64,000 nt of DNA, taken from NCBI GenBank assembly GCA_025055075.1, contig JANWYV010000035.1:11163-75162 (forward strand), in the 5' to 3' direction. Shown here piece after piece: positions 5,385 to 61,897 of this stretch; the first letter of the stretch is position 1, and every line of letters begins with the position of its first letter. The position numbers and the translations under genes are program-made. The notes under the pieces are model-generated. The model searched no databases. It saw only the letters and a program-made list of their open reading frames with translations, and was not told the origin of the DNA. The DNA is from Blastocatellia bacterium. GTDB lineage: Bacteria > Acidobacteriota > Blastocatellia > HR10.

Positions 5385-5459
5385 AGGCGCGTAGCTCAGG
5401 GGGAGAGCACTACCTTGACGCGGTAGGGGTCAGCGGTTCAAATCCGCTCGCGCCTACCA
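5385..5459 (+). tRNA. tRNA-Val (anticodon GAC), includes encoded 3' CCA
   Basis: cloverleaf read manually: acceptor AGGCGCG/CGCGCCU 7 bp, D arm GCUC-AGGGGGA-GAGC, anticodon stem CUACC/GGUAG with loop UUGACGC, T arm AGCGG-UUCAAAU-CCGCU, discriminator A, CCA. Confidence 0.85.
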
Positions 5460-33102: not shown

Positions 33103-33352
33103 CTTCCTCGCCTCCTTAGTTTGGGATGTGACAGTAACGATGCCCACTATAGCACGCATTGAGAAAATCTGTCAACACATCCCATCAGCATCAGCGTGCT
33201 GGACGTTATGCGCGTAACGCTTACCTGAGCAAAAGCGTATTCCTTATAGCTGAGGAACAACGTGAACGGAAGGGAGAGACTTCATGCGGGCGAGGAGAAG
33301 CCGACCAAGACCTTCATGGGGAGACATTTGGACGATCGAGAGGCCTTTCCTC

Positions 33353-34552
33353 ATGGGTGCGCTCTTCATTGGGGCGACCTTGATTCTGAGCGGATGTCGA
33401 AGCGGATCTCCGGCCTCGAGCGCGCAAAACCCGATTGTGGGCGATCCGGCCTCTCCGAAGCTTGTGCGGACGGCGCGCGTCATGGTTTGGCCTTTTGAGG
33501 ATACGATATCGGTCATGGGGACGCTGGCGGCTTACGATCAAGCGACGCTGCGGGTGAAGGTTCCCGGGCGGTTGCAGATGATCACCGTGGATTTCGGCAG
33601 CGTCGTGCGCCAGGGGCAATTGATCGCCCAGATTGAACCCCGCGACTACCAATTGCGCGTGGAGCAAGCTGAAGCAGCATTGGCGCAGGCGCGTGCGCGT
33701 TTGGGATTGCCCCTGGAAGGGACGGACGATCGCGTGGATCCCGAGCAGACCGCGCTGGTCCGCCAAGCGCGTGCCGTTTTAGAAGAAGCGCGTGCCAATT
33801 ACGAACGCTCGACCCGGCTGTTTGAAGAAGGCGTCATCTCGCGCTCGCGCTTCGACGCCGACGAAGCGGCGTATAAGGTCGCGCTCGGCCGCTATCAGGA
33901 CGCTCTGGAGGAGGTGCGCAATCGTCAGGCGCTTCTCGCTCAGCGGCGCTCGGAGCTTGCGCTCGCACGGCAACAATTGGCTGATACAGCCCTTTATGCG
34001 CCTTTTGATGGCGTCGTACAAGAGCGGCACACGAGCGTCGGGGAGTTTCTCGCCGTCGGCTCCCCCGTGGTGACGATCGTGCGAATGGATCCGTTGCGGC
34101 TGCGCGCTGAGGTTCCGGAGCGCGAAGCCCACCGGGTGCGCCCCGGACAACGCGTGCGCGTGACGGTCGAAGGCGACCCCACGATCTACACCGGCCAGAT
34201 CGTGCGCCTCAGTCCGACGATCGCACTGCAAAACCGCATGCTCGTCGTCGAGGCCGAAGTGCGTAACAACGGGCAGCTTCGTCCGGGCGCCTTCGCGCGC
34301 GTGGAGATCCTCACCGGAGAAGGGCGCTCGGCGCCCGTTGTCCCCCCCAATGCCATTGTGAGCTTCGCCGGATTGGAGAAGGTCTTTGTCGTGCAACAGG
34401 GGAGAGCTGTTGAGAAGCGGGTGATGACCGGTCGCCGCACGGGGGAAAGGGTGGAGATTCTCTCCGGACTCGAACCGGGGGAGGAGGTCATCCTCGATCC
34501 AGGTAATCTGCAGCCGGGGCAAGCCGTCGTCTCCGTGCGCGAGCGATCGTGA
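33353..34552 (+). CDS. efflux RND transporter periplasmic adaptor subunit (MFP) lipoprotein; track ORF starts at 33284, lipobox LILSGC suggests start at 33353
   Basis: HlyD/AcrA-like coiled-coil and beta-barrel sequence. Confidence 0.8.
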   Translation: MGALFIGATLILSGCRSGSPASSAQNPIVGDPASPKLVRTARVMVWPFEDTISVMGTLAAYDQATLRVKVPGRLQMITVDFGSVVRQGQLIAQIEPRDYQLRVEQAEAALAQARARLGLPLEGTDDRVDPEQTALVRQARAVLEEARANYERSTRLFEEGVISRSRFDADEAAYKVALGRYQDALEEVRNRQALLAQRRSELALARQQLADTALYAPFDGVVQERHTSVGEFLAVGSPVVTIVRMDPLRLRAEVPEREAHRVRPGQRVRVTVEGDPTIYTGQIVRLSPTIALQNRMLVVEAEVRNNGQLRPGAFARVEILTGEGRSAPVVPPNAIVSFAGLEKVFVVQQGRAVEKRVMTGRRTGERVEILSGLEPGEEVILDPGNLQPGQAVVSVRERS

Positions 34553-34581
34553 CCGGCTGGTGACACCAGGAGGAGAAACCC

Positions 34582-37500
34582 ATGCAAAAACTCGCGGAGA
34601 TTTGTATTCGACGTCCCGTCTTCGCCACGAATATCATCCTCGCTCTGGTCGTCGTTGGCGCGGCGAGCTATTTTCGCCTCGGCGTGGATCGTTTCCCCTC
34701 AGTGGATCTACCGACGGTGAGCGTGCGCACGGTCTTGCCCGGCGCATCGCCTGAGGAGGTCGAGACGCAAGTCTCGCAACGCATCGAAGAGGCCGTCAAC
34801 ACGATCGAAGGCATCTACGAGCTGCGCTCCATCTCCGGCCCCGGCGTCTCGATTGTCATCGTGACCTTCAATCTGGATCGTGACATTGACGCTGCCGCTC
34901 AAGATGTCCGCGATCGCGTGGCGACGGTGCTGCGGGATCTGCCGCGCGACGCGGAACCGCCCATCATCTCCAAGTTCAACAATGACCTCTCTCCAGTGCT
35001 GACGATTGCTCTCTCAGCCGATCGGCCGCTGCGGGAGTTGACCGAATTGGCCGACAAGATCGTGAAGCGGCAACTGGAGCGCTCCGAAGGCGTCGGCGAA
35101 GTGCGCGTGGTCGGCGGCTTGGAGCGTGCCATCAATATTTGGATTGATGCCCATCGGCTGGCGGCCTACCAGATTCCGATCACGGCCGTGCGGGAAGCCA
35201 TCGCGCGTCAGAACGCGGACATCCCGGGCGGCAACGTGACGGCTGGGCCGCATGAGCAGACGCTCCGCACCATGGGGCGCCTCACCGATCCGAAGCAGTT
35301 CGACGATCTGGTCATCGCCACCATCAACGGGATGCCCATCCGCGTGCGCGACATCGGGTGGGCGGAAGATGGGACGAAAGAGCAACGCTCGTTCGCTCGA
35401 CTGAATGGCGTCCCGACGGTGACGCTCGAAATCCGACGCCAGTCCGGAGCCAACACAGTCGCGGTCATCGAAGGGGTCAAAGCCCGACTGGCGCGCGTCC
35501 AGGCGCAGCTCCCGCCCGACGTGCGGATGGAGATCATCCGGGATCAGTCGCGGTACATCTACGCGGCGCTCCATGAGATCAACATGCATCTGCTGGCCGG
35601 CAGTCTGTTGGCCTGCTTGGTCGTTCTCCTCTTCATGCGGAGCTGGCGCTCGACGTTGATCGCGAGCGTGGCGATTCCCGCCTCGGTCATCTCCACCTTC
35701 GGCATGATGCGCGCCTTGGATTTCACCCTCAACAGCGTGACGATGCTGGCCCTCGTGCTCATGGTCGGCATCGTCATTGACGACGCCATCGTCGTCCTGG
35801 AGAACATTTTCCGTTTCGTCGAAGAGAAGAAGATGCGCCCTCTTGAGGCGGCGCGCGCGGCGACGGCCGAAATCGGCCTCGCCGTCACGGCGACGACGCT
35901 CAGCCTCGCCGTCATCTTCATCCCCGTCTCCTTCATGTCCTCGATCTCGGGGCGCTTCCTCTATCAATTCGGCATCACGGCGGCGGTGGCCGTGATGGTC
36001 AGCCTCTTGGTCTCCTTTACGCTGACGCCGATGCTGAGCGCGCGCCTGTTGCGCGCTGAGGATGCTTCCGGGAATACCGGTGTCGCCAGATCGCGAACTG
36101 GCTTTTACGCCGGATTGGAACGGGGATACCTGGCCATCCTCGCCTTCGCCATGCGTCATCGGGTGCTCGTCGCCGGGGCGGCCGTCCTGGTGATGCTCTC
36201 TTCGATCCCGCTCTACCAGATCCTGCGCCAGGAATACATCCCCAGCGACGTGGATGAGGCGGAATTCGAGGTCAATGTGACGGCTCCCGAGGGCACGAGC
36301 ATCGCCGCCATGGATGAGATCATGCGAGCTATTGAGGCCGACCTGCGAGCGACGCGAGGCGTGCGTTTGGTCCTCGCCTCGGCCGGCGGGGGATTTCTCG
36401 GCAACGTCAATCAGGGGAGCGTCTACGTCCGCATCGCTCCTCACGAAGAGCGGCGATTCTCCTTGGCGCGCCTCTGGCGCGAGACGCTCAAAGGGCGCCC
36501 GCTCGATGCGTTTCGCGGAAATTACACGCAACGCGATGTCATGCAAGAGGTGCGTCGCCGTTTGCGTAAGTACTCCGATCTCCGAATTGCGGTGCGCAAT
36601 GCCCCCTCGTTCAATATCGGCGGAGGCAATTTCGACATCGATTTCGTCATCCGAGGTCCGGATCTCGAGCAGCTCGCCGCCTATGCGGAACGCCTGCGGC
36701 AGCAAGCCGATGCGCTGGGCATCGTAGATGCCGACACGACACTGAAGCTGGATAAGCCCGAATTGCGCGTCGAGATCGATCGGGATCGCGCGGCGGCACT
36801 CGGCGTTTCCACCGAGGACATCGCAACGGCGTTGCGCATCATGGTCGGCGGGGATGAGAGGGTCTCGCGGTTCCTCGATCCGACGCTCAATGAGGACTAC
36901 TATGTCCAACTTCGATTGACCGAGGGCGACCGCAACGATCCACAGACGATCTCGCGCTTGTACGTGCCGAGCCGCGGCGGGGGATTGGTGCGGTTGGACA
37001 ACGTAGTGCGGTTGGTCCCGGCGCGCATCGCCTCGCGAATCGATCGCTTGGATCGGCAACGGCAAGTCAGTTTGCGCGCGCAGGTCGCGCCAGGTTATGG
37101 TTTGGCCGATCGCCTCCAAGCGCTGCGCGCGGCCGCGGCGGAGTTGAACATGCCCCCCGCCTATACGATCAGCATCGCCGGACGCGGGCGCGAGCTGGAG
37201 CGCACCTTCCGCGAATTCGTCTGGGCATTCCTGCTGTCGGTCATCTTCATGTACATGATCTTGGCCTCGCAATTCGAGAGCTGGGTGCATCCGTTCACGA
37301 TCCTGCTCTCGCTGCCGCTCTCGGCGCCGTTCGCCTTGCTCTCGCTCTGGGCGACGGGCAACACGCTCAATCTCTACTCCGCGCTGGGATTCCTCGTGCT
37401 CTTCGGCGTGGTCAAGAAGAATGCGATCCTTCAGATCGACCACACGAACCAGCTCCGCGCGCAGGGGATGGATCGGCTTTCGGCCATCCTGCAGGCGAAT

Positions 37501-37872
37501 CGCGATCGGCTGCGTCCGATTTTGATGACGACGCTCACGCTGGTGGCTGGCATGATCCCGATGGCTATCGGGACCGGTCCGGGCGCTGAAGAGCGACGGG
37601 CCGTCGCCGTCGTCGTCATCGGTGGACAATCGCTCTGTCTGCTGTTGACGCTGATTGTCACGCCGGTGGCGTATTCGATCTTCGATGACATCGGCGCGAT
37701 GGCCTTCTGGCGAACGTTGGCGGAACGCCTGCGCGTGACGCTCGAACTGGTGCGACGGCCGCTTGGCGCTATCTTCGGAGGGCGTCAGGTCACCGCTCAT
37801 TCGCGTGCCGTCGCCCCTCTGTTCGAGCGCGAAGAGCGCGAAGTTGAAATCAGCCCCAAGAGTGGCGATTAG
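34582..37872 (+). CDS. RND efflux pump, AcrB/HAE1 family inner-membrane transporter
   Basis: 1096 aa, 12 TM, AcrB family N-terminus MQKLAEICIRRPVFATNIILAL. Confidence 0.9.
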   Translation: MQKLAEICIRRPVFATNIILALVVVGAASYFRLGVDRFPSVDLPTVSVRTVLPGASPEEVETQVSQRIEEAVNTIEGIYELRSISGPGVSIVIVTFNLDRDIDAAAQDVRDRVATVLRDLPRDAEPPIISKFNNDLSPVLTIALSADRPLRELTELADKIVKRQLERSEGVGEVRVVGGLERAINIWIDAHRLAAYQIPITAVREAIARQNADIPGGNVTAGPHEQTLRTMGRLTDPKQFDDLVIATINGMPIRVRDIGWAEDGTKEQRSFARLNGVPTVTLEIRRQSGANTVAVIEGVKARLARVQAQLPPDVRMEIIRDQSRYIYAALHEINMHLLAGSLLACLVVLLFMRSWRSTLIASVAIPASVISTFGMMRALDFTLNSVTMLALVLMVGIVIDDAIVVLENIFRFVEEKKMRPLEAARAATAEIGLAVTATTLSLAVIFIPVSFMSSISGRFLYQFGITAAVAVMVSLLVSFTLTPMLSARLLRAEDASGNTGVARSRTGFYAGLERGYLAILAFAMRHRVLVAGAAVLVMLSSIPLYQILRQEYIPSDVDEAEFEVNVTAPEGTSIAAMDEIMRAIEADLRATRGVRLVLASAGGGFLGNVNQGSVYVRIAPHEERRFSLARLWRETLKGRPLDAFRGNYTQRDVMQEVRRRLRKYSDLRIAVRNAPSFNIGGGNFDIDFVIRGPDLEQLAAYAERLRQQADALGIVDADTTLKLDKPELRVEIDRDRAAALGVSTEDIATALRIMVGGDERVSRFLDPTLNEDYYVQLRLTEGDRNDPQTISRLYVPSRGGGLVRLDNVVRLVPARIASRIDRLDRQRQVSLRAQVAPGYGLADRLQALRAAAAELNMPPAYTISIAGRGRELERTFREFVWAFLLSVIFMYMILASQFESWVHPFTILLSLPLSAPFALLSLWATGNTLNLYSALGFLVLFGVVKKNAILQIDHTNQLRAQGMDRLSAILQANRDRLRPILMTTLTLVAGMIPMAIGTGPGAEERRAVAVVVIGGQSLCLLLTLIVTPVAYSIFDDIGAMAFWRTLAERLRVTLELVRRPLGAIFGGRQVTAHSRAVAPLFEREEREVEISPKSGD

Positions 37873-38079: not shown

Positions 38080-41000
38080 ATGAAGCATAAGAGGAGACTG
38101 CTCGGAAGAAGCCTCTCGCTTTTCCTTGCGAGTGCCCTCATCCTCGCTCCCTCAGTCTTTCCCCAAACGAAGGAGAAAGCGCGGCCCACTCCGGCCGCTC
38201 AGAAACTCGATGAGGGGTACACGGCCAAGATCCGCGAATATACGACCGAGCCATTCTTCCTGACCGAGTTGGTAGATCATCTGCCGGCTTCCGATACGGT
38301 GCCCACGCCGGAGAAAGTGCTCGGTTACATCATCGGCGCACCGAATAAGCTGACGTACACGAAGGACATCTACCGCTACATGCGCGAGTTGGAGAAAGCG
38401 ACGCCGCGGGTGAAGGTCTTCACAATGGGCTATTCGGAAGAAGGGCGAGAGATGATTTTGGTCGTCATCTCCGATGACGCGAATATGCGCCGGCTGGAGC
38501 GCTACAAAGAGATCACGGCTCGACTGGCCGATCCGCGCACGCTCACCGACGAAGAGGCCAAGCGGTTGATCGCCGAAGGACTGCCCATGTATTGGGCGAC
38601 TGGCGCGATCCATTCGCCGGAGACCGGCTCGCCCGAGATGCTCATGGAGCTGGCCTATCGGCTCGCCGTCGAGGAGACGCCCTTCATCCAGGAGATCCGA
38701 AAGAATCTGATCGTGCTCATCACGCCTGTCGTCGAGGTGGACGGACGCGACCGCCAAGTCGATCTCTACAACTATCGCAAGGCCAATCCCAATAAGCCCG
38801 CGCCGAACTTGATCTACTGGGGGAAGTACGTCGCTCACGACAACAATCGCGACATGATGTCACTCTCGCTGGCGCTCAGCCGACATATGATGCGGACTTT
38901 CTTGGAGTGGCATCCGCAGGTGTTGCACGATCTACACGAATCGGTCCCCTTCCTCTACACCTCGACGGGAACGGGGCCATATAACGCGTGGATTGACCCG
39001 ATCTTGATCAACGAATGGCACCTGTTGGCCTATCACGAGATCGAGGAGATGACCAAGCGGGGCGTGCCCGGAGTGTGGACGCATGGATTCTACGACGGAT
39101 GGGCGCCCAACTACATGTTCTATGTCGCCAATGGACACAATGCGATCGGGCGATTCTACGAGACCTTCGGTGGGCGCGGAGCGGACACAGGCGAGCGTAC
39201 TGTTCCGGCCGCGCAAACGACGCGGACATGGTACCGGCCGAATCCTCCACTGCCGCGTGTTCGCTGGTCGTTTCGCAACAATATCAATCTGCAGCAGAGC
39301 GCTTTGCTCTTCGCGATGAACTTCGTGGCGCGGAACAAGGAGCGGTTCTTGCACAATTTCTATCTCAAGAGCAAGCGCTCGGTATTGAAGGCGACCACTG
39401 AAGGCCCGGCGGCGTGGGTCATTCCGGCCGATGATCCGCGCCCGGTCGAATGCGCGGAACTCGTCAACCTCCTTCGGTTACAAGGCGTCGAAGTCCACAC
39501 GGCGGACCGCGAGATCGAAGTGACGGTGACCGACGGGCGAGAGGAGAAGAAGGTCACTTTCCCACCCGGCAGCTACATTATCCGCATGGATCAACCCTAC
39601 AGCCGCATGGCCGATATGTTGCTCGATACGCAGTATTACAATCCGAACGATCCGCGCCCCTACGATGATACGGGCTGGTCGCTCGGGGCCCTGAAGAACG
39701 TGCGGACTGTGCGCGTGACGGACACGGCGATCTTGAAAGCCCCGATGACCCTCCTGACCTCGGATGTGAAGGTTCGGGGGCGAATCATCGGACCGGCGGC
39801 GACGGCCGGATACCTCATCAATCACAACACGGACAACACCCTGGCGACATTTCGCTTCCGGTTGAGGGACGTGCGCATGCTCGCCGCTGAAGAACCATTT
39901 GAAGCGCTCGGTCGCGCGTTCAATGCTGGTTCGTTCATCATCCCGACCGAGGGGAATCCGCCGGACTTGCGCGCGCGTCTCGAACAAGCGATTGCAGACC
40001 TCGGCCTCACCGTATATGCCGTCGAGGAGTTGCCGAAAGTGCCCACCCATCCGATCGCCGTACCGCGCATCGCGCTCGTGCACACGTGGACGAACACGCA
40101 GAACGAAGGCTGGTTCCGTCTCGCCTTCGATCGCTTGCAAATCCCTTACGACTACGTCTCCGTGCACGTGCTGCGCGACACGCCGAACCTCCGCGACAAG
40201 TACGACGTGATCATCCTGGGACCGACTCCAGGCAGTGCGCAAGCGATCGTCAACGGCCTCCCGAAGCGCGGCGATCCCATCCCGTGGAAGAAGAGCGACC
40301 TGACGCCGAACATCGGCACATCCCCAGACCAAACGGATGACATCCGAGGAGGGATCGAGCTGGAAGGTATGGTCAACCTCAAGCGCTTCATCGAGCAGGG
40401 AGGACTGTTCGTCACGATCGGAAGTAATGCCGCCCTCCCCATCGACTACGGATTGATCCAAGGCGTCTCCATCGTTCAAACGCGCGAGCTGCAAGCGCGC
40501 GGCGGCGTGTATCGCGCCGTGTTCGCCGACAGGCGGAGCCCCATCGCTTACGGCTACGGGGATCACCTCGCCGTGTACTTCAATCAAGCGCCCGTGTTTC
40601 AAGTGAGCCTGACTGGCGGCCTGGGCGGAGGAAGCGGAGCTTTCGGCGCGCAACAGCAACAACCGACTGGGCGACCGAGCGGACGTGGCTCGCTCACCGA
40701 TCCCGATATCCCCCAAGGACGACCGTATGTGCCGCCGCCACCCTCTCCGCGTCCGGGAGAGGAATCGGGAATCCCGGAAGAAGTGAGCGAGTTCGTGCGC
40801 GCATTCCTCCCTCCGCCGGAGGCGCGACCGCGCATCGTCTTGCGCTTCGCCGAAGAGCGGGACCTGCTCATCGCCGGGATGCTTGCCGGAGGCCGCGAGC
40901 TGGCGAATCGTCCCGCCGTCATTGATGTCCCCGTCGGCAGAGGACACGTGCTCCTGTTCGCGAACAATCCGATGTGGCGACAGCAAACGCAAGGCAGCTT

Positions 41001-41100
41001 CTTCCTCCTCTTCAACGCCATGCTCCACTACGATCATCTTCACGTCGGACGACAACGGGCGCGCATCGAGGCCACCAGCGACGAAGAAGACTTGCAGTGA
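38080..41100 (+). CDS. secreted M14-family zinc metallopeptidase (carboxypeptidase-like) with large C-terminal extension
   Basis: signal peptide; zinc ligands HSPETGSPE (HxxE) and downstream His; strong AAGGAGGG RBS. Confidence 0.75.
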   Translation: MKHKRRLLGRSLSLFLASALILAPSVFPQTKEKARPTPAAQKLDEGYTAKIREYTTEPFFLTELVDHLPASDTVPTPEKVLGYIIGAPNKLTYTKDIYRYMRELEKATPRVKVFTMGYSEEGREMILVVISDDANMRRLERYKEITARLADPRTLTDEEAKRLIAEGLPMYWATGAIHSPETGSPEMLMELAYRLAVEETPFIQEIRKNLIVLITPVVEVDGRDRQVDLYNYRKANPNKPAPNLIYWGKYVAHDNNRDMMSLSLALSRHMMRTFLEWHPQVLHDLHESVPFLYTSTGTGPYNAWIDPILINEWHLLAYHEIEEMTKRGVPGVWTHGFYDGWAPNYMFYVANGHNAIGRFYETFGGRGADTGERTVPAAQTTRTWYRPNPPLPRVRWSFRNNINLQQSALLFAMNFVARNKERFLHNFYLKSKRSVLKATTEGPAAWVIPADDPRPVECAELVNLLRLQGVEVHTADREIEVTVTDGREEKKVTFPPGSYIIRMDQPYSRMADMLLDTQYYNPNDPRPYDDTGWSLGALKNVRTVRVTDTAILKAPMTLLTSDVKVRGRIIGPAATAGYLINHNTDNTLATFRFRLRDVRMLAAEEPFEALGRAFNAGSFIIPTEGNPPDLRARLEQAIADLGLTVYAVEELPKVPTHPIAVPRIALVHTWTNTQNEGWFRLAFDRLQIPYDYVSVHVLRDTPNLRDKYDVIILGPTPGSAQAIVNGLPKRGDPIPWKKSDLTPNIGTSPDQTDDIRGGIELEGMVNLKRFIEQGGLFVTIGSNAALPIDYGLIQGVSIVQTRELQARGGVYRAVFADRRSPIAYGYGDHLAVYFNQAPVFQVSLTGGLGGGSGAFGAQQQQPTGRPSGRGSLTDPDIPQGRPYVPPPPSPRPGEESGIPEEVSEFVRAFLPPPEARPRIVLRFAEERDLLIAGMLAGGRELANRPAVIDVPVGRGHVLLFANNPMWRQQTQGSFFLLFNAMLHYDHLHVGRQRARIEATSDEEDLQ

Positions 41101-41274
41101 ATACCGAAGCCAGCGAGCCCGCGAGGGGGAACGAAGGATTCGCTCCCCGAGAGGGCTCGCGGCGCGCGTCGTTTGAGCCCGACCGTCGTATGCGCCCGCG
41201 GGGGATTTTCGAGTATAATGCCCCCCGTATGCGGCAGCACGATCTTCGGCAGTGACCGCTTCCGGAGGGGCGAG

Positions 41275-42975
41275 ATGGGGAAAGGAAAACTCGTATGGGC
41301 GTTGACATTGGCGGTGATGCTGGAGCCACTACCGACGGGCGCGTTCGGCGGGCGGCCCGTTCGCGCTCGGCATGGTCTGGTGGCGTCCACGCATGAGATC
41401 GCTTCGCGCGTGGGCGTGGAGATTCTGCAGCGCGGAGGGAATGCTGTGGATGCGGCGGTGGCGGTTGCGCTGGCGCTCGCCGTCGTGCATCCGGCAGCGG
41501 GGAATCTGGGAGGAGGAGGCTTCATGCTCATTCGCCTGGCCGATGGGCGAACGACCGTGATTGATTATCGAGAGACGGCACCGACTCGCGCGCACCGCGA
41601 TATGTATGTGGACGAGAAGGGCGAGATCATTCCCGAAGCCTCGACCGTCGGACATCGCGCCGTCGCCGTCCCGGGAACGGTCGCCGGCATGGCGCTCGCT
41701 CTCGAAAAATATGGGACGATGTCCTGGGCGGACGTCTGCCGGCCCGCCGAACGACTCGCGCGCGAAGGCGTCGTACTCACCCATTTCGAGGCCGAGAGCT
41801 TGAAGCGAGCCGCACGACTCCTGTCTCGCTTTCCCGAAAGCCGGCGCATCTTCCTTCGCGATGGACGCTACTACGAAGAGGGCGAGGTCTTTCGCCAACC
41901 AGAGTTAGCCGACACTCTTCGACGGCTCATCGAGCACGGTCCGCGAGAGTTTTACGAGGGTGAGACGGCGCGCCGCATCGTCGCTGAGATGGAAGCCGGA
42001 GGGGGATTGATCACGCTCGAGGACCTGAAGAACTATCGCGCCGTCGAGCGCGAGCCGTTGCGCACGACCTATCGCGGATATGAGATCATCACTGTCCCCC
42101 CGCCCAGCTCTGGCGGCGTCGCCCTGATCGAAATGTTGCATATCCTGGAAGGCTTCGACTTGCGCGCGCTCGGTCATAATTCCGCTGAGTACGTGCATCT
42201 GCTCGTCGAGGCGATGCGGCGCGCGTTCGCCGATCGCGCGCGCTTCCTTGGCGATCCGGACTTCGCGCGCATTCCGGTGAAGGGACTCACCTCGCGCCGA
42301 TATGCGGAGGCGTTGCGTCGAACGATCGACCCCAAACGTGCGACTCCCAGCGCCACGCTCACCGGAGGCGACGCCTTCGCTTACGAATCCGAACAAACGA
42401 CGCATTTCACCGTCGTGGATGCGGCGGGTAATGTCGTCGCCAATACATACACGCTCAACGGCAGCTACGGAAGCGGAGTGACCGTTCGCGGAGCGGGATT
42501 CCTCTTGAACAACGAGATGGATGACTTCACGAGCAAGCCGGGCGCGCCCAACATGTTCGGACTCCTCCAGAGCGAAGCCAATCAGATCGCCCCTCGCAAG
42601 CGTCCGCTCTCGGCGATGACGCCCACGATCGTGCTCAAAGACGGTAAGCCATGGCTGGCGTTGGGTAGTCCGGGCGGCCCGACGATCATCAACACCGTCC
42701 TGCAGGTCATCCTCAACGTCATCGAGTTTGGGATGAATCTTCAGCAAGCCGTCGCAATGCCTCGCGTGCATCATCAATGGATGCCGGATCAGATCGTCTA
42801 CGAGCCCTTCGGGCTCTCACGGGATACGATCGAAGCGCTCCGAGCGCGCGGGCACACCTTGACGGAGAGGCCTCGTTACATGGGCGATGTGCAAGCCATC
42901 ATGATCGAGCCGGAGACGGGCATGCGCTTGGGGGCTTCCGATCCGCGCATGGATGGAAAGCCGGTGGGCTATTGA
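41275..42975 (+). CDS. ggt: gamma-glutamyltransferase (start MGKGKLVW)
   Basis: Ntn autoprocessing/nucleophile site QTTHFTVVD, GGxxG motif SPGGPTIIN; GGAGGGG RBS. Confidence 0.9.
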   Translation: MGKGKLVWALTLAVMLEPLPTGAFGGRPVRARHGLVASTHEIASRVGVEILQRGGNAVDAAVAVALALAVVHPAAGNLGGGGFMLIRLADGRTTVIDYRETAPTRAHRDMYVDEKGEIIPEASTVGHRAVAVPGTVAGMALALEKYGTMSWADVCRPAERLAREGVVLTHFEAESLKRAARLLSRFPESRRIFLRDGRYYEEGEVFRQPELADTLRRLIEHGPREFYEGETARRIVAEMEAGGGLITLEDLKNYRAVEREPLRTTYRGYEIITVPPPSSGGVALIEMLHILEGFDLRALGHNSAEYVHLLVEAMRRAFADRARFLGDPDFARIPVKGLTSRRYAEALRRTIDPKRATPSATLTGGDAFAYESEQTTHFTVVDAAGNVVANTYTLNGSYGSGVTVRGAGFLLNNEMDDFTSKPGAPNMFGLLQSEANQIAPRKRPLSAMTPTIVLKDGKPWLALGSPGGPTIINTVLQVILNVIEFGMNLQQAVAMPRVHHQWMPDQIVYEPFGLSRDTIEALRARGHTLTERPRYMGDVQAIMIEPETGMRLGASDPRMDGKPVGY

Positions 42976-42980
42976 GTCGT

Positions 42981-45182
42981 ATGACGCACGCTCGATGGCT
43001 CCGTTGGGCGATCCTCGGACTTCTCTTGCTTCCTCCCGTCGGAAGCGGCGCGTCCTCGCAAAGCGCGGCACGCAGGGCTTCGGCGCTCATCTACCGAGAT
43101 GATTTCGGCGTTCCTCACATCTTCGCTCCGGATGTGGAGACGGCGGCCTATGCTGTCGGCTACGCGCAAGCGGAAGACCGACTCGAAGAGTTGCTCAAGA
43201 ACTATCGCCGGGCGACGGGAACGATGGCCGAAGCCTTCGGTCCAGAATTCTTCCGACAAGATTACGAACAACGCTTGTGGCGACACGCCGAGGTGAGTCG
43301 CGCGAACTATCACCGCCTCACCCCGAAGACGCGAGCCGTGATCGAGGCCTTCATCGAAGGGGTGAAGGCGTACATGAGGGAACATCCGGAAAAAGTGCCC
43401 GCGTGGGCGCCGGAGATCCAGCCATGGCACGTCGTCGCCCTCGGACGCTTCATCATCTTCGGATGGCCTGTCGGCGAAGCCTTGGCCGATCTGCGTCGGG
43501 TCGGGATCACTCCCGATGTCCCATCGGGGCTTCCCGCCGAACTCCGGAATCTGTGGGGAAGGTCGCCGAGCAGTTTCGATCTCGCGGATCGTGGCTCGAA
43601 CGCGATGCTCATTGCCCCGTGGCGTACAGCGATGCGCGCGCCCATCGCCATCATTGATCCGCATCTCAGTTGGTACGGCGAATTCCGTTTCTATCAACTC
43701 CGCATATACGCAGGCACCTTGGCCGTCGCCGGCGTCGCGATCCTCGGCACTCCCCTCCCCGCGCTCGGACATAGCGCGCACTGTTCCATCGCAATGACCA
43801 CGGGAGGACCAGACACGGCCGATGTCTACGAGGAAGAGGTCAACCCCGAGAATCCGCGCCAATATCGCTATGACGGGGAATGGCGTCCGATGCGCGTGCG
43901 CGCGGAGCGGATCGGCGTTCGCCGAGGAGATCGCGTGGAATGGGTGACCATCGAGATCGAGGAGACGCACCACGGGCCGATCATCGCCCGCCTCGGTCAC
44001 AAAGCTTACGCGGTGGCGCTCCCCTACGCGGAGGAAGTGGAGCTGATGGACCAAATCTTCGAGATGCTGATGGCGCGCGATGTCGAGGAGATGAAACGCG
44101 CGTTGGCGCGCCTTCAACTCATGGCGCAGAACGTCTTGATCGCCTGCACCTCGGGCGACCTCTATTACGCCCGCGTCGGGCGCGTGCCGATCCGGCCTGA
44201 TGGCGTAGATCCGAGTCGTCCCATTCCCGGACACACGGCTGCCACCGAATGGCGCGGGATTCATCCGTTCTCCGATCTCGTGCAGCTTCAGAATCCCCCT
44301 TCCGGCTACATGCACAACTGCAACGTGACGCCATTCGCCATGATGCGGGAGAGTCCCCTCGTGCCGGAGCGGTACATCCCGTACATCTACAACGCGAGCC
44401 GCACGGCGCCGCGCCATCAACGCGGCGAACGCGTGACGGAACTGTTGGACGCGGCGACGCGCGTCACCGAGGAACAAGCGCTCGCCCTCGCTTTCGATAC
44501 CGGCGTTTGGCACGCTGAGCTGTGGCAAGCGCGAGTGAGAGAGGCATGGGAACGAGCGCCCGAGTCGGCGAAATCACCGGAGGTGGCCATCGTCTACGAA
44601 TTGATCCAACGCTGGAACCGGCGCAGCGATCCCGATTCCGAGGGCGCGCTCGCGTTCTACGCGTTCAAGAAAGCGCTCGGCCCGATGCTCGCTCCTCGCG
44701 TTGATCCCCCGCCGACGGTGACCGACGCTGAGCTTCTCGAGGCGCTCGCGCGCGCAGCGAAATGGCTCAGGGCGACGTTCGGATCGCTTCGCGTCCCCTA
44801 CGGGCGATATTTCCGCGTCGGCCGCGAAGGCGGGACGCGAACATGGCCTGTCGGAGGCGGCTCTCTCAATCGAGAACCGAACAATGTGGGGATGGCGACT
44901 CCGCGCGCCATCACCTTCGTCCCCGCGGGCGAGGTGATGCTCGGACGCGCCGGACAATCGGCGACGCACGTCGTCATCCTGACGAAACCGCCTCGGTCAT
45001 ATTCGGTCGTCCCCCTGGGGCACAGCGACGATCCGAAGAGCCCGCATTGGGACGACCAGGCGGAAAAGCTCTTCAGTCGGGGACGCGCTGCGCCCACGTA
45101 TTTCCTGCGCCGCGGTGAGCTACTCAAGCACGTCACGGCGCGAAAGGTGGTGAGGCGCACGATGAGAAGACCACGAGGATGA
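42981..45182 (+). CDS. penicillin acylase family (S45) Ntn-hydrolase, AHL/cephalosporin acylase-like (start MTHARWLRW)
   Basis: signal peptide; alpha subunit then beta-subunit nucleophile Ser in GSNAMLIAP; ATG 5 nt after ggt stop. Confidence 0.85.
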   Translation: MTHARWLRWAILGLLLLPPVGSGASSQSAARRASALIYRDDFGVPHIFAPDVETAAYAVGYAQAEDRLEELLKNYRRATGTMAEAFGPEFFRQDYEQRLWRHAEVSRANYHRLTPKTRAVIEAFIEGVKAYMREHPEKVPAWAPEIQPWHVVALGRFIIFGWPVGEALADLRRVGITPDVPSGLPAELRNLWGRSPSSFDLADRGSNAMLIAPWRTAMRAPIAIIDPHLSWYGEFRFYQLRIYAGTLAVAGVAILGTPLPALGHSAHCSIAMTTGGPDTADVYEEEVNPENPRQYRYDGEWRPMRVRAERIGVRRGDRVEWVTIEIEETHHGPIIARLGHKAYAVALPYAEEVELMDQIFEMLMARDVEEMKRALARLQLMAQNVLIACTSGDLYYARVGRVPIRPDGVDPSRPIPGHTAATEWRGIHPFSDLVQLQNPPSGYMHNCNVTPFAMMRESPLVPERYIPYIYNASRTAPRHQRGERVTELLDAATRVTEEQALALAFDTGVWHAELWQARVREAWERAPESAKSPEVAIVYELIQRWNRRSDPDSEGALAFYAFKKALGPMLAPRVDPPPTVTDAELLEALARAAKWLRATFGSLRVPYGRYFRVGREGGTRTWPVGGGSLNREPNNVGMATPRAITFVPAGEVMLGRAGQSATHVVILTKPPRSYSVVPLGHSDDPKSPHWDDQAEKLFSRGRAAPTYFLRRGELLKHVTARKVVRRTMRRPRG

Positions 45183-45484
45183 AACGCGGACTCTCCCGAC
45201 GGCGCTTCCCCGCCCCCACAGATTTCGAGGAGACAGAGTTTGCCCCCCATCGGCGCTCCAGCTCGTAATGAGGATGCTTCACCATGCGGGAATCGAGCTG
45301 CGCATTTCGGCCATTTCTCGCCTACCCCAAGCCAGCGGGCAACGGGAAAACGCTCATCGTCGAAGCTCTCGACACGGAGATCCCCGTCGAATGCGGATGA
45401 GGGAGCCATCGCCTCCCCTTCGGGAGAGGCTTCGTGCTATGATGAAAGGTCAACACAAGCGATGCTGGCGAGGGGTAAGCGTCT

Positions 45485-47500
45485 ATGATCCGTCGGCTTC
45501 TCGATCGTCCGATCACGCGGCGTCCGGCCACTGTGCGCTTCACGGGGAGAATCCTCTTCCTCACCGAAGACCCCGATCTCATTCGTCGGCAGTTGGCCGG
45601 GGAGGATCTCGCATGGACGCCGGAGATGAAACTGCGGGATGACATTTCGACGGACGAGATCACGCCCGCCTACGTCTGCTTCTATTTCGACGAAACGCTC
45701 GGCGAATTCCCTTACATCGGCTTGAAAGCCGGCGATCAATTCCCCATCGGCCGGGGCGACGTCAAACGCGGGGGGTTCGTCGCATCGGTCTCGGGCAAAC
45801 GACGAGGCAAGGGGAGCAGCCGCGAGCAAGCTCCGTTCGCTGAACTCTCCGCGGGCATCCGTGTCGTGATCGCGGAGAACATCGAACGCATTTACAAGCA
45901 AAATTGCCAAAACTTGGGCTTACTGACGACGACGAATTTCGATCTCATCGAGAAGATCCGACGCGGGGAAGAAATCCCGCTCTCCGCTTTCACTGAGGGT
46001 GAGGATGAGATCACGCGGCAGATCGTGGAATTCGGCGGCTTGTTTCCCTTCAACGTCGCGCGCCTCCAAGGCCAGGTCGCCATTCCCCCGATTCGGACCG
46101 AACCGCGTCCGATGACGCTCGCGGAGAAGATCCTGGCGCGTCACATGGTCGTGGATTTGCCGCAGGATCGCGTGGGCGTGCCGGCCGTACGTCCGGGCGA
46201 TGCGGGATTCGTGCGCGCTGATTGGCGCTTCAGCCACGAATATGTGACGCCAATGGCCGCTATCTTCTTCGAGCGCTACGTCGGCGAAGAGGAGCGCGTC
46301 GCCGATCCCGATTCGATCCTCCTCTTCCGCGACCACTTGACGTTCCTGGACGAAGTCATGCCGCCGGAGCGACGCGCCATGGGCCTGCTGGATTTGGCTC
46401 ACCAGCTCAAGCTCAAGCAGGAGGAGTTCGCCCGTAAGCAAGGGATTCGCTATCACGGGGAATTGAGCGATCGTAAGGGTTCCGAAGGGATCTGCCACAG
46501 CATCGTCCTCGAACGATACGCGCTGCCGGGGCAAGTGATCGTCGGCTCGGATTCCCACACGCCGCATTCGGGAGCGATCGGCGCCCTCGCCTTCGGCGTG
46601 GGCACGACCGATCTCTTCAATTCCTGGATCACGCGCGATGTGCGCGTGCGCGTGCCCGAATCGGTCAAAGTCCTCGTTCGAGGACGACTACCGGAGAACG
46701 TCACGGCGAAAGACCTCGTCTTGGCGATTCTGCGCCTTGACTACGTGAGAAGCGGCCGGGCGATCGGCAAAGTAATCGAGTATGCCGGCGATGCCATCCG
46801 CGCGCTCGATATAGATGAGCGAGCGACACTGACGAACATGGCCGCGGAGATCGGTGGCTTCACCGGGATCGTCGCTCCGGATGAGAAAACGGTGGACTTT
46901 CTGGTCGAGCGGCGCGGTCTCTCCCGCGCTGAGGCGGAACGATTGATCGAGGATCTCCAGAGCGATCCCGATGCCGAATACGCGCATGTGATCGAACTGG
47001 ATGCCTCGATGATTCGTCCCATGCTCGCGCTGCCTGGCGATCCCGGCAATGGCATCGAGATCGCGTGCCTCGATCGCGAAGTGAAGATTCACATCGCCTA
47101 CGGGGGCTCATGCACGGCGGGGAAGAAGGCCGATATGGACATGTACGCGCGCGTATTGGCCGAAGCGCTCGCCGAAGGTCGACGTGTGCATCCCGAGGTG
47201 CGTTTCTACATCCAATTCGGTTCGCAGGATGTCCGTCAATATTGCGCCGAGCGGGGGTATCTGGAATTGTTCCGACAAGCGGGAGCGATCGTGATCGAGC
47301 CCAGTTGCGGCGCCTGCATCAATGCCGGTCCAGGCGCGACGACGAGCCGCGATCAAGTGGCCATCAGCGCGCAGAATCGAAATTTCCCCGGTCGCAGCGG
47401 TCCCGGGCAGCTCTATCTCGCGAGCCCCCTCACGGTCGCGGCATCGGCCATCGCCGGAAAGATCGCCGAATACCGTCCGCGTCGTTCTTCGACCGTATGA
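45485..47500 (+). CDS. aconitase-family Fe-S hydro-lyase with N-terminal LeuD-like swivel domain fused to LeuC-like catalytic domains (AcnB-type domain order)
   Basis: N-terminal GSSREQAPFAL...VIAENIERIYKQNCQNLGLL (swivel) then MTLAEKILARH, GSDSHTPHSGAIGALAFGVGTTD, YGGSCTAGK, SCGACINAG (three Cys ligands). Confidence 0.75.
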   Translation: MIRRLLDRPITRRPATVRFTGRILFLTEDPDLIRRQLAGEDLAWTPEMKLRDDISTDEITPAYVCFYFDETLGEFPYIGLKAGDQFPIGRGDVKRGGFVASVSGKRRGKGSSREQAPFAELSAGIRVVIAENIERIYKQNCQNLGLLTTTNFDLIEKIRRGEEIPLSAFTEGEDEITRQIVEFGGLFPFNVARLQGQVAIPPIRTEPRPMTLAEKILARHMVVDLPQDRVGVPAVRPGDAGFVRADWRFSHEYVTPMAAIFFERYVGEEERVADPDSILLFRDHLTFLDEVMPPERRAMGLLDLAHQLKLKQEEFARKQGIRYHGELSDRKGSEGICHSIVLERYALPGQVIVGSDSHTPHSGAIGALAFGVGTTDLFNSWITRDVRVRVPESVKVLVRGRLPENVTAKDLVLAILRLDYVRSGRAIGKVIEYAGDAIRALDIDERATLTNMAAEIGGFTGIVAPDEKTVDFLVERRGLSRAEAERLIEDLQSDPDAEYAHVIELDASMIRPMLALPGDPGNGIEIACLDREVKIHIAYGGSCTAGKKADMDMYARVLAEALAEGRRVHPEVRFYIQFGSQDVRQYCAERGYLELFRQAGAIVIEPSCGACINAGPGATTSRDQVAISAQNRNFPGRSGPGQLYLASPLTVAASAIAGKIAEYRPRRSSTV

Positions 47501-47646: not shown

Positions 47647-49638
47647 ATGGATGCGACGCGAACCGTAGATGCCTTGTTATCTCAAGTACGGGTCATCGAA
47701 CCTCCGACCGCTTTTCGCGAGCGGGCGTGGATTCGTGACGAGCATCTCTACGAGGAGGCGGCACGTGATCCCGAGGCTTTTTGGGGACGCGTGGCCGAAG
47801 AATTCGTCCATTGGTTCCACCCGTGGGAGCACGTGCTCCAATGGACGCCGCCCAAGCCGGGAACATCGCCTCCTTGGTTCCGATGGTTCATCGGCGGTCG
47901 GCTCAACGTCTGCTACAACTGCGTGGATCGGCATGTGCAAACATGGCGGCGTACGAAAGCCGCGATCATCTGGGAAGGAGAGCCGGGCGAAGAGCGCGTG
48001 TTGACGTATCAAGATCTGCATCGCGAGGTGCAGAAGTTCGCCAACGTCCTCAAATCGCTCGGCGTGCGACGCGGCGACCGCGTGACGATCTACCTCCCCA
48101 TGATTCCCGAGTTGCCCATCGCCATGCTCGCTTGCGCCCGCATCGGAGCGATTCACAGCGTCGTCTTCGGCGGCTTCTCGGCAGAAGCGCTGCGCGATCG
48201 CATCAACGATTCCGGCAGCCGAGTGCTCATCACGGCCGATGGGGGATGGCGACGTGGTCAGATCGTCCCGCTCAAGCGCAACGCCGATGAAGCCCTCACC
48301 GAGTGCCCGGGCGTAGAGCACGTCGTCGTCGTGCATCGCGGCGTCATGGACGCTACGCACGTCCCCATGCATGAAGGGCGCGATCACTGGTGGCATCGGT
48401 TGATGGAACACGCGCCGCTCGAATGCCCATGCGAGGAGATGGAGAGCGAAGATCCGCTCTATATCCTCTACACGAGCGGCACGACGGGGAAACCGAAAGG
48501 GCAGCTCCATGTCCAAGGGGGGTATCTGGTGGGCGTCGCCGCCACGCACAAGTGGATCTTCGACGTGCGCGACGAGGACATCTACTGGTGCACGGCCGAC
48601 ATCGGATGGGTGACAGGCCATAGCTACGTCGTTTACGGCCCGCTGTGCAACGGAGCGACGACGGTCATGTACGAAGGCGCACCGGATTATCCCGACCGCG
48701 ATCGGTGGTGGGCGCTCGTCGAGAAATACCGCGTCAATATCTTCTACACGGCGCCGACGGCCATCCGCTCGTTCATGAAATGGGGAGAAGAATATCCGCG
48801 ACGACATGATCTCTCTTCGCTGCGTTTGTTGGGGACGGTAGGGGAACCGATCAATCCCGAGGCGTGGATTTGGTACTGGGAACATATCGGCGGTCGGCGT
48901 TGTCCCGTCGTGGATACCTGGTGGCAAACGGAGACCGGATGCATTTTGATCTCGCCGCTTCCAGGATTGACGCCGTTGAAGCCAGGATCGGCGACACGAC
49001 CTTTGCCTGGGATCTTCGCCGATGTCGTGGATGAGGAGGGCCGATCGTGTCCGCCAGAGGTTCCCGGCTATCTGATCCTGACGCGCCCATGGCCCTCGAT
49101 GTCGCGCACGATTTGGGGAGATCCGGAGCGATACGTGCAGGTCTACTGGTCGCGCTTCCCAGGCGTCTATTTCACAGGAGATGCTGCCGTCAGAGATAAG
49201 GACGGATACTTCTGGCTGCTCGGACGCGTGGACGATGTCATCAACGTCGCCGGACATCGGTTGAGCACGATGGAGTTGGAGAGCGTGCTGGTGGAGCATC
49301 CGGCCGTCGCTGAAGCCGCCGTCATTGGAAGATCGGACGAGGTCAAGGGACAAGTCCCTGTCGCCTTCGTCACGATCCGGGAGGGAGTTCCAATAACGGC
49401 CGAACTTGGGGACGCCTTGAAGAATTATGTCGTCACCCGCATCGGCGCGCTGGCACGTCCGGCCGCTGTGTTCTTCACGGCCGAGCTTCCGAAGACGCGT
49501 TCGGGGAAGATCATGCGGCGGCTCTTGCGCGACATCTCCGAAGGACGTGTCCTGGGCGATACGACGACCCTCGCCGATCCCATGGTGGTGCAGCGCCTGA
49601 AGCAAATGTACGAGGAACAATACGGAGAAGGGAGTTAG
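47647..49638 (+). CDS. acs: acetyl-coenzyme A synthetase
   Basis: AMP-binding motif [11 protein letters not shown], full-length similarity to Acs; GAGGAG RBS. Confidence 0.95.
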
Positions 49639-49663
49639 CTCGGAAGCCCCTTGCAAGTTCAAG

Positions 49664-61785: not shown

Positions 61786-61856
61786 ATGGCTCCAGCCATC
61801 ACGGAGGGCGCAAGGGCCATTATCCGCTGCCAACGGATAATGGCCCTTGCGATTTT
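61762..61856 (+). promoter_or_regulatory. transcription attenuator: pause/anti-antiterminator hairpins (61762-61778, 61782-61801), antiterminator (61776-61789 paired with 61815-61828) and terminator
   Basis: mutually exclusive helices verified base by base; leader stop codon lies inside the antiterminator 5' strand. Confidence 0.55.
61809..61856 (+). terminator. intrinsic terminator: perfect 17-bp stem GCAAGGGCCAUUAUCCG/CGGAUAAUGGCCCUUGC, 7-nt loop, UUUUU
   Basis: perfect inverted repeat 61809-61825 / 61833-61849 followed by TTTTT 61852-61856, 40 nt upstream of cimA ATG. Confidence 0.65.
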
Positions 61857-61897
61857 TAGGAGATCGCCTTCGCTTGGAGAAAGGAGGTCGGAAGGAC

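Follow-up and report, generated by a model that had tools for sequence, protein, structure and literature searches.

What does an aconitase-like protein do when its swivel domain precedes its catalytic domains and the helical HEAT domain of AcnB is missing? The question is raised by a gene in a 64,000-nucleotide stretch of genomic DNA from a Blastocatellia bacterium (Acidobacteriota; assembly GCA_025055075.1, contig JANWYV010000035.1, positions 11,163 to 75,162), referred to below as the window. The gene, at window positions 45485..47500, is genuine and intact, and it encodes a predicted iron-sulfur enzyme of the isopropylmalate isomerase (IPMI) type with the swivel part fused ahead of the catalytic part. 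It is best described as a permuted, fused IPMI/homoaconitase-type isomerase that falls into an annotation gap and represents no new kind of enzyme. The protein is neither AcnB nor a true aconitase, and it is not yet proven to be LeuCD.

Architecture and family placement

The open reading frame (ORF; mechanical ORF list and translation) begins with ATG and runs without interruption through 671 codons to a stop, and its start position is matched by orthologues in alignments. Its translation holds VIAENIERIYKQNCQNLGLL, MTLAEKILARH, GSDSHTPHSGAIGALAFGVGTTD, GGSCTAGK, and SCGACIN, the strings that a first-pass annotation of this DNA had quoted. A further string quoted there, GSSREQAPFAL, marks the correct motif region with inexact letters, the translation being GSSREQAPFAEL. 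Proteins identical over all 671 residues, MCS6817586.1 among them, are on record as "aconitase family protein [Blastocatellia bacterium]", and the copy in the metagenome-assembled Blastocatellia genome GCA_033579395.1, on a contig of 3.08 Mb, again carries only the name "aconitase family protein".

Domain searches confirm the AcnB-like order, swivel first and catalytic domains after. Pfam Aconitase_C (PF00694) matches residues 103-148 (E 7e-10, 39.8 bits against a cut-off of 22.8) and Aconitase (PF00330) matches residues 243-658 (E 8.5e-97, 325.4 bits against a gathering threshold of 28.7). In the same order, the NCBIfam small-subunit models LEUD_arch, HacB, and leuD map to residues 49-167, and the large-subunit models PRK00402, hacA_fam, IPMI_arch, and LEU2 align end to end on residues 210-662. 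No AcnB N-terminal or HEAT model of Pfam or NCBIfam matches the protein, as the first-pass annotation had anticipated. The 48 residues that precede the swivel are conserved across swivel-first proteins, are absent from free LeuD, and fall far below the size of a HEAT domain.

The full set of aconitase-superfamily catalytic residues is present on alignment to pig mitochondrial aconitase and the Methanocaldococcus jannaschii enzymes, along with the three cluster cysteines that had been read from GGSCTAGK and SCGACIN (Table 1). All residues that are equated with aconitase residues in Table 1 are invariant in a 46-sequence alignment with an identity span of 45-89%. Among 160 orthologues translated from their loci, GSSRE, SHEYVTP, DSHT, the first cluster cysteine (GG[ST]CTxGK), and NRNFPGRSG recur in every one, and the CGACINAGPG pattern is matched in 158. 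Both Pfam domains, the active-site residues, and the four-domain fold make the protein a member of the aconitase superfamily. Homology further suggests that it would bind a [4Fe-4S] cluster and catalyze dehydration and hydration; Ser642 of pig aconitase, the counterpart of the first serine of GSSRE, is the catalytic base (PMC8184944).

Specificity in IPMI and homoaconitase is set by a recognition loop of the small subunit (PMC7308503, citing Yasutake 2004, Jeyakanthan 2010, and Lee 2012). The corresponding region here, AYVCFYFD, is hydrophobic and aromatic, has an invariant cysteine (Cys65), lacks arginine, and is unlike the motif of canonical LeuD loops. Its consensus, A[HY]xC[FY]x[FY]D, holds in 159 of the 160 orthologues, the remaining one having G in first place.

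An AlphaFold2 model built from the 46-sequence alignment is a single compact fold with a mean predicted local distance difference test score (pLDDT) of 92.5 and a predicted template-modeling (TM) score of 0.91. Block means of pLDDT lie mostly at 85-98; they drop to the 70s in a few blocks near the C terminus, and residues 668-671 form a disordered tail. Foldseek gives a probability of 1.0 to homoaconitase, IPMI, AcnB, and mitochondrial aconitase alike. The top local matches in the PDB are the homoaconitase and IPMI large subunits of M. jannaschii (TM 0.87-0.91 on target, 30-34% identity). Escherichia coli AcnB (1l5j) is the only solved structure that is colinear over both modules (TM 0.71 on query, 754 columns), and the alignment to mitochondrial aconitase is confined to its catalytic part (about 470 columns).

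The first-pass annotation had also raised the possibility of a frameshift-fused leuD-leuC pair. Such an assembly or frameshift artifact, which has the unusual module order in its favor and nothing more, is refuted: thousands of proteins from independent assemblies show the swivel-first architecture in one uninterrupted ORF, its linker conserved, the identical protein is present on at least seven contigs, and the model is one compact fold.

The branch to which the catalytic domains belong was assessed in a neighbor-joining tree (63 sequences, 425 columns, 200 bootstraps) with references labeled by NCBIfam and with E. coli LeuC, AcnA, and AcnB included. The acidobacterial group that contains the window protein, designated subfamily A, is recovered with 100% bootstrap support, its union with P0165, P0166, P0167, P0169, and P0170 with 82%, and a core of 23 swivel-first sequences (subfamily A, a second group designated B, and cluster-embedded members) with 74%. 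The whole swivel-first group lies beside the PRK00402-type LeuC/HacA proteins and apart from the PRK07229 aconitases and AcnA, with weak deep nodes (16-36%). At the position of aconitase Gln72-Asp73, AcnA reads MQDFT, AcnB SQDTT, and a bona fide PRK07229 aconitase AQDLT, whereas the window protein reads SHEYVT and E. coli LeuC VHEVT. On the strength of the tree placement, this H-E signature, and the hydrophobic recognition loop, the catalytic module is assigned from its sequence to the archaeal-type LeuC/HacA branch and not to the true aconitases. The earlier assignment to the aconitase family stands at the level of the superfamily, with the qualification from NCBIfam, the tree, and Foldseek that the modules are of LeuD/LeuC (IPMI/homoaconitase) type rather than aconitase proper.

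Two readings of the catalytic module that would name a familiar enzyme fare poorly against these data. It is very improbable that the protein is the tricarboxylic acid (TCA)-cycle aconitase of these bacteria, acting on citrate and isocitrate. As expected of one, it is a highly conserved superfamily member that stands alone like a housekeeping gene, and the PRK07229 aconitate hydratase model gives it 330 bits. The cut-off of that model is 612, however, and TIGR01342 gives 283 against 719. The AcnA and AcnB models reach just 78-161 bits against cut-offs of 686-1287 (AcnA models 139-161 against 686-945; AcnB models TIGR00117 78.6 against 1287 and NF006690 110.3 against 782). Moreover, H-E replaces the Q-D of AcnA, AcnB, and the bona fide PRK07229 aconitase, the loop that supplies Arg580 for the γ-carboxylate in mitochondrial aconitase has no arginine here, and the tree places the protein away from aconitases. 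A homoaconitase for α-aminoadipate lysine synthesis or 2-oxoadipate formation is most improbable. The M. jannaschii homoaconitase large subunit 4kp2 is the best PDB match by sequence and fold, and hacA_fam gives 319 bits, but that score is under the cut-off of 385.7 (HacA_Meth, 246.6 against 550; HacB_Meth, 47 against 230), AYVCFY aligns to YLRT without Arg-Thr, and no lysW/lysX-type neighbors occur at the window or the examined loci.

Distribution and genomic context of swivel-first enzymes

A first homologue search returned at least 8000 matches, and the best 120, for which architecture and length were checked, all share the Pfam architecture at 664-747 residues. Identity to the window protein is 94-76% in Blastocatellia-like sequences and a uniform 72-74% in Terriglobales, Sulfotelmatobacter, and Korobacteraceae. 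At least 579 relatives are found in GTDB species-representative genomes, and the 80 listed are almost all Acidobacteriota. In a metagenome scan seeded with other clades, the best 80 loci were nonetheless all subfamily A, with a mean identity to the window protein of 71%. The hallmarks of this subfamily are SGKRRGKGSSRE and DSHTPH. Subfamily B, which also stands alone, carries SKGCGSSRE and DSHTCMAG, is 55-59% identical to the window protein, and resides in Pyrinomonas/Pyrinomonadaceae, Sandaracinus, Chondromyces, Polyangiaceae, and some Planctomycetes. No form A was found among the close matches in Pyrinomonadaceae, the carriers of form B, and the two look like alternative versions of one function. 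An exhaustive search of 50%-identity representatives adds dozens more swivel-first clusters, with identities as low as 31%.

This very large family is conserved in soil Acidobacteria and without a curated name, and it is among the most abundant aconitase-superfamily proteins of soil metagenomes. No NCBIfam model covers any swivel-first cluster; none is full-length, and the best for the window protein, PRK00402, gives 330.8 bits against a cut-off of 385. A literature search turned up no publication that describes a swivel-first LeuD-LeuC enzyme or the LeuCD of Acidobacteria. The first-pass description of a poorly characterized clade is borne out insofar as every NCBIfam match is under cut-off, while the substrate, which it had left blank, can be narrowed through the company that more distant relatives keep.

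Some of these relatives fuse the enzyme with a predicted dehydrogenase. Two proteins (P0171, 47% identity; P0314, 79% identical to P0171) are triple fusions whose Iso_dh part is closest to isopropylmalate dehydrogenase (358 bits) and tartrate dehydrogenase rather than to isocitrate dehydrogenase. They lie on low-GC contigs near a 635-residue LeuA-like synthase, a thiamine pyrophosphate enzyme, an electron-transfer flavoprotein, and several acyl-CoA dehydrogenases, in what looks like an uncharacterized 2-oxoacid elongation/decarboxylation cluster. Two further arrangements combine separate Iso_dh and LeuA-like genes with the swivel-first gene (L091 and L098/L099 in Table 1), and another (L097) looks like a natural-product cluster. 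Thus, in three of the five context types the enzyme is accompanied by a LeuA-like synthase and a LeuB-type dehydrogenase; in a fourth (L096), its companion is a 3-hydroxy-3-methylglutaryl-CoA (HMG-CoA) lyase-like protein that has the same HMGL-like fold as the synthase. LeuA- and LeuB-like partners are the mark of 2-oxoacid chain elongation, where the step from a 2-substituted to a 3-substituted malate falls to the aconitase-type component. Accordingly, the contexts of the relatives point to a 2-alkylmalate to 3-alkylmalate isomerase.

L096 suggests a different use. There, start and stop codons overlap in what appears to be an operon, in which the gene for the sister-group protein P0165 (54% identity) stands between genes for a family III CoA-transferase and an HMG-CoA-lyase-like protein. 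Upstream are genes for a TctC binding protein, a citryl-CoA-lyase-like protein, LysR, and an acs-like protein, and the whole may serve the breakdown of an organic acid. By extension, the window protein could be a catabolic hydratase/isomerase that acts on an imported di- or tricarboxylic acid before CoA activation and lyase cleavage, and the acetyl-CoA synthetase gene (acs) that follows it would fit. That extension is improbable. The L096 arrangement was met at a single locus, of 63% GC and with a gene content that looks proteobacterial, and P0165 has Y-E in place of H-E. The locus census of subfamily A shows no transporter, CoA-transferase, or lyase neighbors, and the adjacency to acs is limited to close relatives, with a promoter-like site between the two genes.

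The surroundings of the window gene itself are less telling. A penicillin-amidase-family gene lies upstream and acs downstream, an arrangement kept only in near-identical genomes. The first-pass annotation had located the gene between amidohydrolases and acs; acs is indeed there, but the upstream M14-like peptidase, γ-glutamyltranspeptidase, and penicillin amidase fit the other half only loosely. The 146-nt gap before acs holds the promoter-like site, and a promoter/terminator scan is otherwise uninformative. No upstream regulatory RNA or attenuator was found, Rfam over the whole window giving only tRNA. In bacterium HR11 and Terriglobales, the neighbors of subfamily A genes are unrelated housekeeping genes, and subfamily B genes are equally isolated. 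A census of 80 GTDB and 80 metagenome loci revealed no conserved operon partner of subfamily A and only lineage synteny with inositol monophosphatase, DUF1684, Hfq, RecO, and GlyQS. No partner synthase or dehydrogenase gene is adjacent to subfamily A or B genes at the loci examined.

One metagenomic locus, L114, departs from this pattern. Its subfamily A gene (72% identity) follows, on the same strand, genes for LeuA (NF002086, 624 bits against 532), LeuB (TIGR00169, 489 against 353), and DUF1684, and no canonical leuC or leuD is present among the ORFs called in that stretch. DUF1684 is the usual upstream neighbor in Terriglobales as well (L005, L006). The leuA/leuB context that the first-pass annotation had considered is found at this single orthologue locus; it would make the enzyme more ordinary yet still real.

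A candidate pathway partner in the window is a citramalate synthase gene (cimA), 14.3 kb from the swivel-first gene and not in the same operon. Because a bona fide CimA is encoded here, the organism uses the pyruvate/citramalate route to 2-oxobutyrate and needs a citramalate isomerase for isoleucine synthesis. The gene also counts against Chloracidobacterium, a branched-chain amino acid auxotroph, as the source of the DNA. After cimA, the start of a 2-oxoacid dehydrogenase E1-α-like gene (~63590..64000) runs off the window.

Elsewhere in the window, three large hydrolase genes occupy 38080..45182 (+): an M14-carboxypeptidase-like gene (1006 residues), the γ-glutamyltranspeptidase gene, and the penicillin-amidase-family gene. 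The ORFs of the last two have overlapping long starts; as called on the source contig, the two genes are shorter and encode 566 and 733 residues. An RND efflux pair, an HlyD-family membrane-fusion protein and an AcrB-family pump, is encoded at 33284..37872 (+), and a tRNA-Val (GAC) at 5385..5459 (+) is the sole RNA gene of the window by Rfam and ARAGORN. Long antisense ORFs shadow real genes, one of 661 residues opposite acs (47677..49662, -) and one of 1024 residues opposite the AcrB gene; they are typical of 62% GC DNA and are not genes.

Table 1. Features of the swivel-first gene and its product, the candidate partner gene, and the loci of relatives (window coordinates unless a locus is named)
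Feature	Position	Strand	Basis or content
Swivel-first fused LeuD-LeuC-type [4Fe-4S] hydro-lyase (predicted), subfamily A, complete coding sequence	45485..47500	+	ORF list, Pfam, NCBIfam
Shine-Dalgarno-like GAGGGG, 9 nt 5′ of ATG	45470..45475	+	sequence read directly
N-terminal extension, residues 1-48, with GRILFLTEDP..RQL	45485..45628	+	alignments; block-mean pLDDT 85-97
Swivel domain (domain 4, LeuD-like), residues 49-167	45629..45985	+	NCBIfam; PDB small subunits 3vba, 1v7l, 2pkp
Predicted substrate-recognition region AYVCFYFD, residues 62-69	45668..45691	+	aligns with M. jannaschii IPMI YLVY, homoaconitase YLRT
GSSRE motif, Ser111-Ser112-Arg113 = pig aconitase Ser642/Ser643/Arg644	45812..45826	+	residues 102-153 align with 5acn 633-684
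Linker from swivel to catalytic part, residues 168-209, invariant GGL at 184-186	45986..46111	+	alignments, AlphaFold
Catalytic domains 1-2-3 (LeuC/HacA-like), residues 210-662	46112..47470	+	PRK00402 330.8 bits, model positions 1-413/415; PDB 4kp2, 4kp1
His251-Glu252, at aconitase Gln72-Asp73 position; IPMI/homoaconitase-type signature	46235..46240	+	alignment
Asp283-His284 = pig aconitase Asp100-His101, active site			alignment
His338 = pig aconitase His147, active site			alignment
Asp356-Ser357-His358 = aconitase Asp165-Ser166-His167, active site	46550..46558	+	alignments
Asn451 and Glu455 = pig aconitase Asn258 and Glu262, active site			alignment
Cys543 = aconitase Cys358, first predicted [4Fe-4S] ligand	47111..47113	+	alignments
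Cys608-Gly-Ala-Cys611 = aconitase Cys421/Cys424, predicted cluster ligands 2 and 3	47306..47317	+	alignments
NRNFPGR: Asn631, Arg632, Arg637 = aconitase Asn446, Arg447, Arg452 (carboxylate binding)	47375..47395	+	alignments
Citramalate synthase (CimA), candidate pathway partner	61847..63532	+	TIGR00977 749.8 bits against 450 cut-off
L114 gene order	L114 1812-9986		LeuA-like synthase (410 residues), LysR (-), leuA without C-terminal regulatory domain (445 residues), leuB, DUF1684, subfamily A gene
Triple fusion Iso_dh + swivel + catalytic, 988-991 residues (P0171; P0314)	L008 10001-12967; L092 7647-10622		47% identity (P0171); P0314 79% identical to P0171
L091 gene order (P0172)			46% identity; Iso_dh, swivel-first enzyme, LeuA-like synthase
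L098/L099 gene order (P0169)			51% identity, 69% GC; swivel-first enzyme, LeuA-like synthase, hydrolase, cytochrome P450; Iso_dh on opposite strand
L097 neighbors (P0166)	L097 363-9639		54% identity, 69% GC; pyridoxal phosphate enzyme, Amidohydro_2, O-methyltransferase, PrpB/phosphoenolpyruvate-mutase-family, aldehyde dehydrogenase, non-ribosomal peptide synthetase condensation domain
L096 gene order (P0165)	L096 6608-10895		54% identity; family III CoA-transferase, swivel-first enzyme, HMG-CoA-lyase-like; overlapping start/stop codons

Proposed role and mechanism

The role put forward for the enzyme in this Blastocatellia bacterium is that of an isopropylmalate/(R)-citramalate isomerase, the fused LeuCD equivalent of its lineage, a reading that is held at a probability of roughly 45%. 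The enzyme would feed a LeuB-type dehydrogenase both in leucine synthesis and in isoleucine synthesis by the citramalate route. By homology with aconitase and IPMI, the three cysteines would hold the [4Fe-4S] cluster, whose fourth iron would bind the hydroxyl and a carboxylate of the substrate. Abstraction of a proton by the serine of the swivel GSSRE motif (Ser111) would lead the 2-substituted malate to lose water and form a cis-unsaturated acid, which would flip in the site and be rehydrated at the adjacent carbon, giving the 3-substituted malate. The swivel domain is predicted to supply Ser111, Arg113, and the specificity loop and to close over the pocket, with the hydrophobic AYVCFYFD loop selecting a non-polar substituent. 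Fusion of the swivel before domain 1, as in AcnB, would let a tether of about 40 residues replace a subunit interface.

Several leads on the role of subfamily A are consistent with this LeuCD equivalence, although none is strong. The window encodes cimA, the L114 orthologue lies behind leuA-leuB, and the subfamily spans the phylum at 72-74% identity from class to class, which is what a core enzyme should show. A branched-chain amino acid auxotroph of the phylum, Chloracidobacterium thermophilum, is reported to lack all genes of branched-chain synthesis except for aminotransferases (PMC4376005), and it is not among the named top matches of the homologue search.

Other observations weigh against an isopropylmalate/citramalate role. 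Every LeuC/LeuD equivalog cut-off of NCBIfam is missed by a wide margin (LeuC models TIGR02083 276.7 bits against 610 and TIGR00170 190 against 560; LeuD models LEUD_arch 55 against 109 and leud 41.5 against 246), and the AYVCFYFD loop differs from canonical LeuD loops in alignment. A leu/ilv operon is absent around the subfamily A gene in the window and at 159 of the 160 loci. When the E. coli Ilv and Leu proteins were searched by tblastn against about 1.97 Mb of DNA flanking subfamily A loci, only leuA and leuB of L114, cimA of the window, and an IlvA-like gene in L009 emerged, which is about the frequency expected by chance (the authors' estimate, assuming about 10 such genes per 5-Mb genome). 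L114 is therefore an anecdote. The nearest outgroups occupy quite different contexts, namely the CoA-transferase/HMG-CoA-lyase-like operon of L096 and the natural-product-like cluster of L097. The low-GC genome of L092 carries separate canonical leuC and leuD genes besides its swivel-first enzyme, and such paralogy is common in the wider family. Canonical LeuC and LeuD entries presumably exist in Swiss-Prot for some Acidobacteria as well, which, if true, would favor a paralogue.

That paralogue is the serious alternative, and it is a tentative one: an enzyme with the same chemistry, the isomerization of a 2- to a 3-substituted malate, that serves a different substrate and pathway conserved in Acidobacteriota alongside ordinary LeuCD. 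The canonical leuCD pair of L092, the loop with its invariant cysteine and aromatic residues, and the 159 loci devoid of leu operon context all speak for it, as do the specialized clusters in which distant swivel-first relatives serve LeuA-/LeuB-like partners and the source annotation of some members as 3-benzylmalate isomerase. On the other side, a partner synthase or dehydrogenase is never adjacent in subfamilies A or B, and phylum-wide presence with very strong conservation fits core biosynthesis better than a specialized role. An unlikely form of the idea makes subfamily A a core, phylum-wide acidobacterial enzyme that does not replace LeuCD; its substrate would be an unrecognized 2-hydroxy-dicarboxylic acid, and its pathway, central or lipid/cofactor-related, one not yet described. 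Its sister form would then operate in Pyrinomonadaceae, Polyangia-type Myxococcota, and some Planctomycetes, and its partner synthase and dehydrogenase would be encoded elsewhere in the genome.

The choice between LeuCD equivalence and a separate pathway matters for annotation. Without a curated model, NCBI names these proteins "aconitase family protein" and KEGG-style pipelines name them "LeuC large subunit". If the enzyme is a true isopropylmalate/citramalate isomerase, automated reconstructions will mistake Acidobacteria for leucine auxotrophs or for bacteria devoid of LeuD; should it not be a LeuCD equivalent, a phylum-wide and very conserved predicted Fe-S enzyme is without a known role. 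The annotation affects thousands of genomes, and pathway predictions for a major soil phylum would change. In addition, the compact fused enzymes in LeuA/LeuB-like clusters are ready parts for the engineering of 2-oxoacid chain extension.

Comparison with known systems

The 4-1-2-3 domain order of the window protein is not unprecedented, since a 4-linker-1-2-3 class is recognized for AcnB and AcnX type I (PMC8184944). A swivel-first member of LeuD-LeuC type is not among the eight superfamily subfamilies listed in that work. E. coli AcnB shares the order and a colinear fold, but the window protein lacks a HEAT-like domain, is 20% identical, has H-E instead of Q-D, and matches Pfam Aconitase_C (LeuD type) with its swivel and no AcnB-specific model. 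AcnX type I is likewise a single 4-1-2-3 chain (PMC8184944) with a weak colinear fold match (TM 0.47); it differs in its [2Fe-2S] cluster, its Pfam families, and an identity of just 11-13%.

Bacterial IPMI-type fusions of a large and then a small subunit (P0253, P0284, P0307) hold the same two modules in one chain with the arrangement reversed, the catalytic part leading. At 409-571 bits, their catalytic domains score above the PRK00402 cut-off, and they belong to the LeuC/HacA clade and not to the swivel-first group. In fungi, Leu1 and homoaconitase are also catalytic-then-swivel fusions. One source lists fungal IPMI among the domain-4-first types (PMC8184944), in conflict with the first-pass annotation and with the usual description of Leu1, in which the catalytic part comes first.

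Unlike LeuC/LeuD (EC 4.2.1.33/35), a heterodimer of separate subunits, the window protein is a single chain. The IPMI and homoaconitase pairs of M. jannaschii (MJ0499/MJ1277 and MJ1003/MJ1271; 4kp1, 3vba, 4kp2, 2pkp) are the nearest solved and characterized enzymes, and both modules find their best matches there, in sequence (30-34% identity) as well as in fold. They share identical catalytic residues and the H-[DE] signature with the window protein, whose hydrophobic loop aligns with the recognition loop of the IPMI small subunit, itself hydrophobic. Unlike these pairs, the window protein joins both modules in one polypeptide, the small one leading, and it has 48 additional residues at the N terminus and a conserved linker between the modules. 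It has GKGSSRE against GCGSSRE and DSHTPH against DSHTCT of M. jannaschii-type enzymes, as well as a loop of its own with an invariant cysteine.

A single-gene precedent is HphCD of Nostoc punctiforme, the 3-benzylmalate isomerase of homophenylalanine synthesis, which works with the HphA synthase and the HphB dehydrogenase (PMC12961565, bioRxiv 10.64898/2026.06.15.732371). Two members of subfamilies A/B (P0091, P0510) carry, from two independent sources, the annotation "3-benzylmalate isomerase" (JGI; NCBI submitter), which is the function of HphCD, and a characterized relative thus probably exists. A search from P0183 towards cyanobacterial HphCD returned only subfamily B and actinobacterial relatives. 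HphCD has HphA- and HphB-like partners, whereas the window gene and subfamilies A and B have no adjacent ones and the relatives at 46-51% identity do; its LeuA/LeuB-like homologation pathway resembles the contexts of those swivel-first relatives. Like the window protein, HphCD combines LeuC- and LeuD-type modules in one gene, and, as far as comparison by description goes, it is probably the nearest characterized single-gene enzyme.

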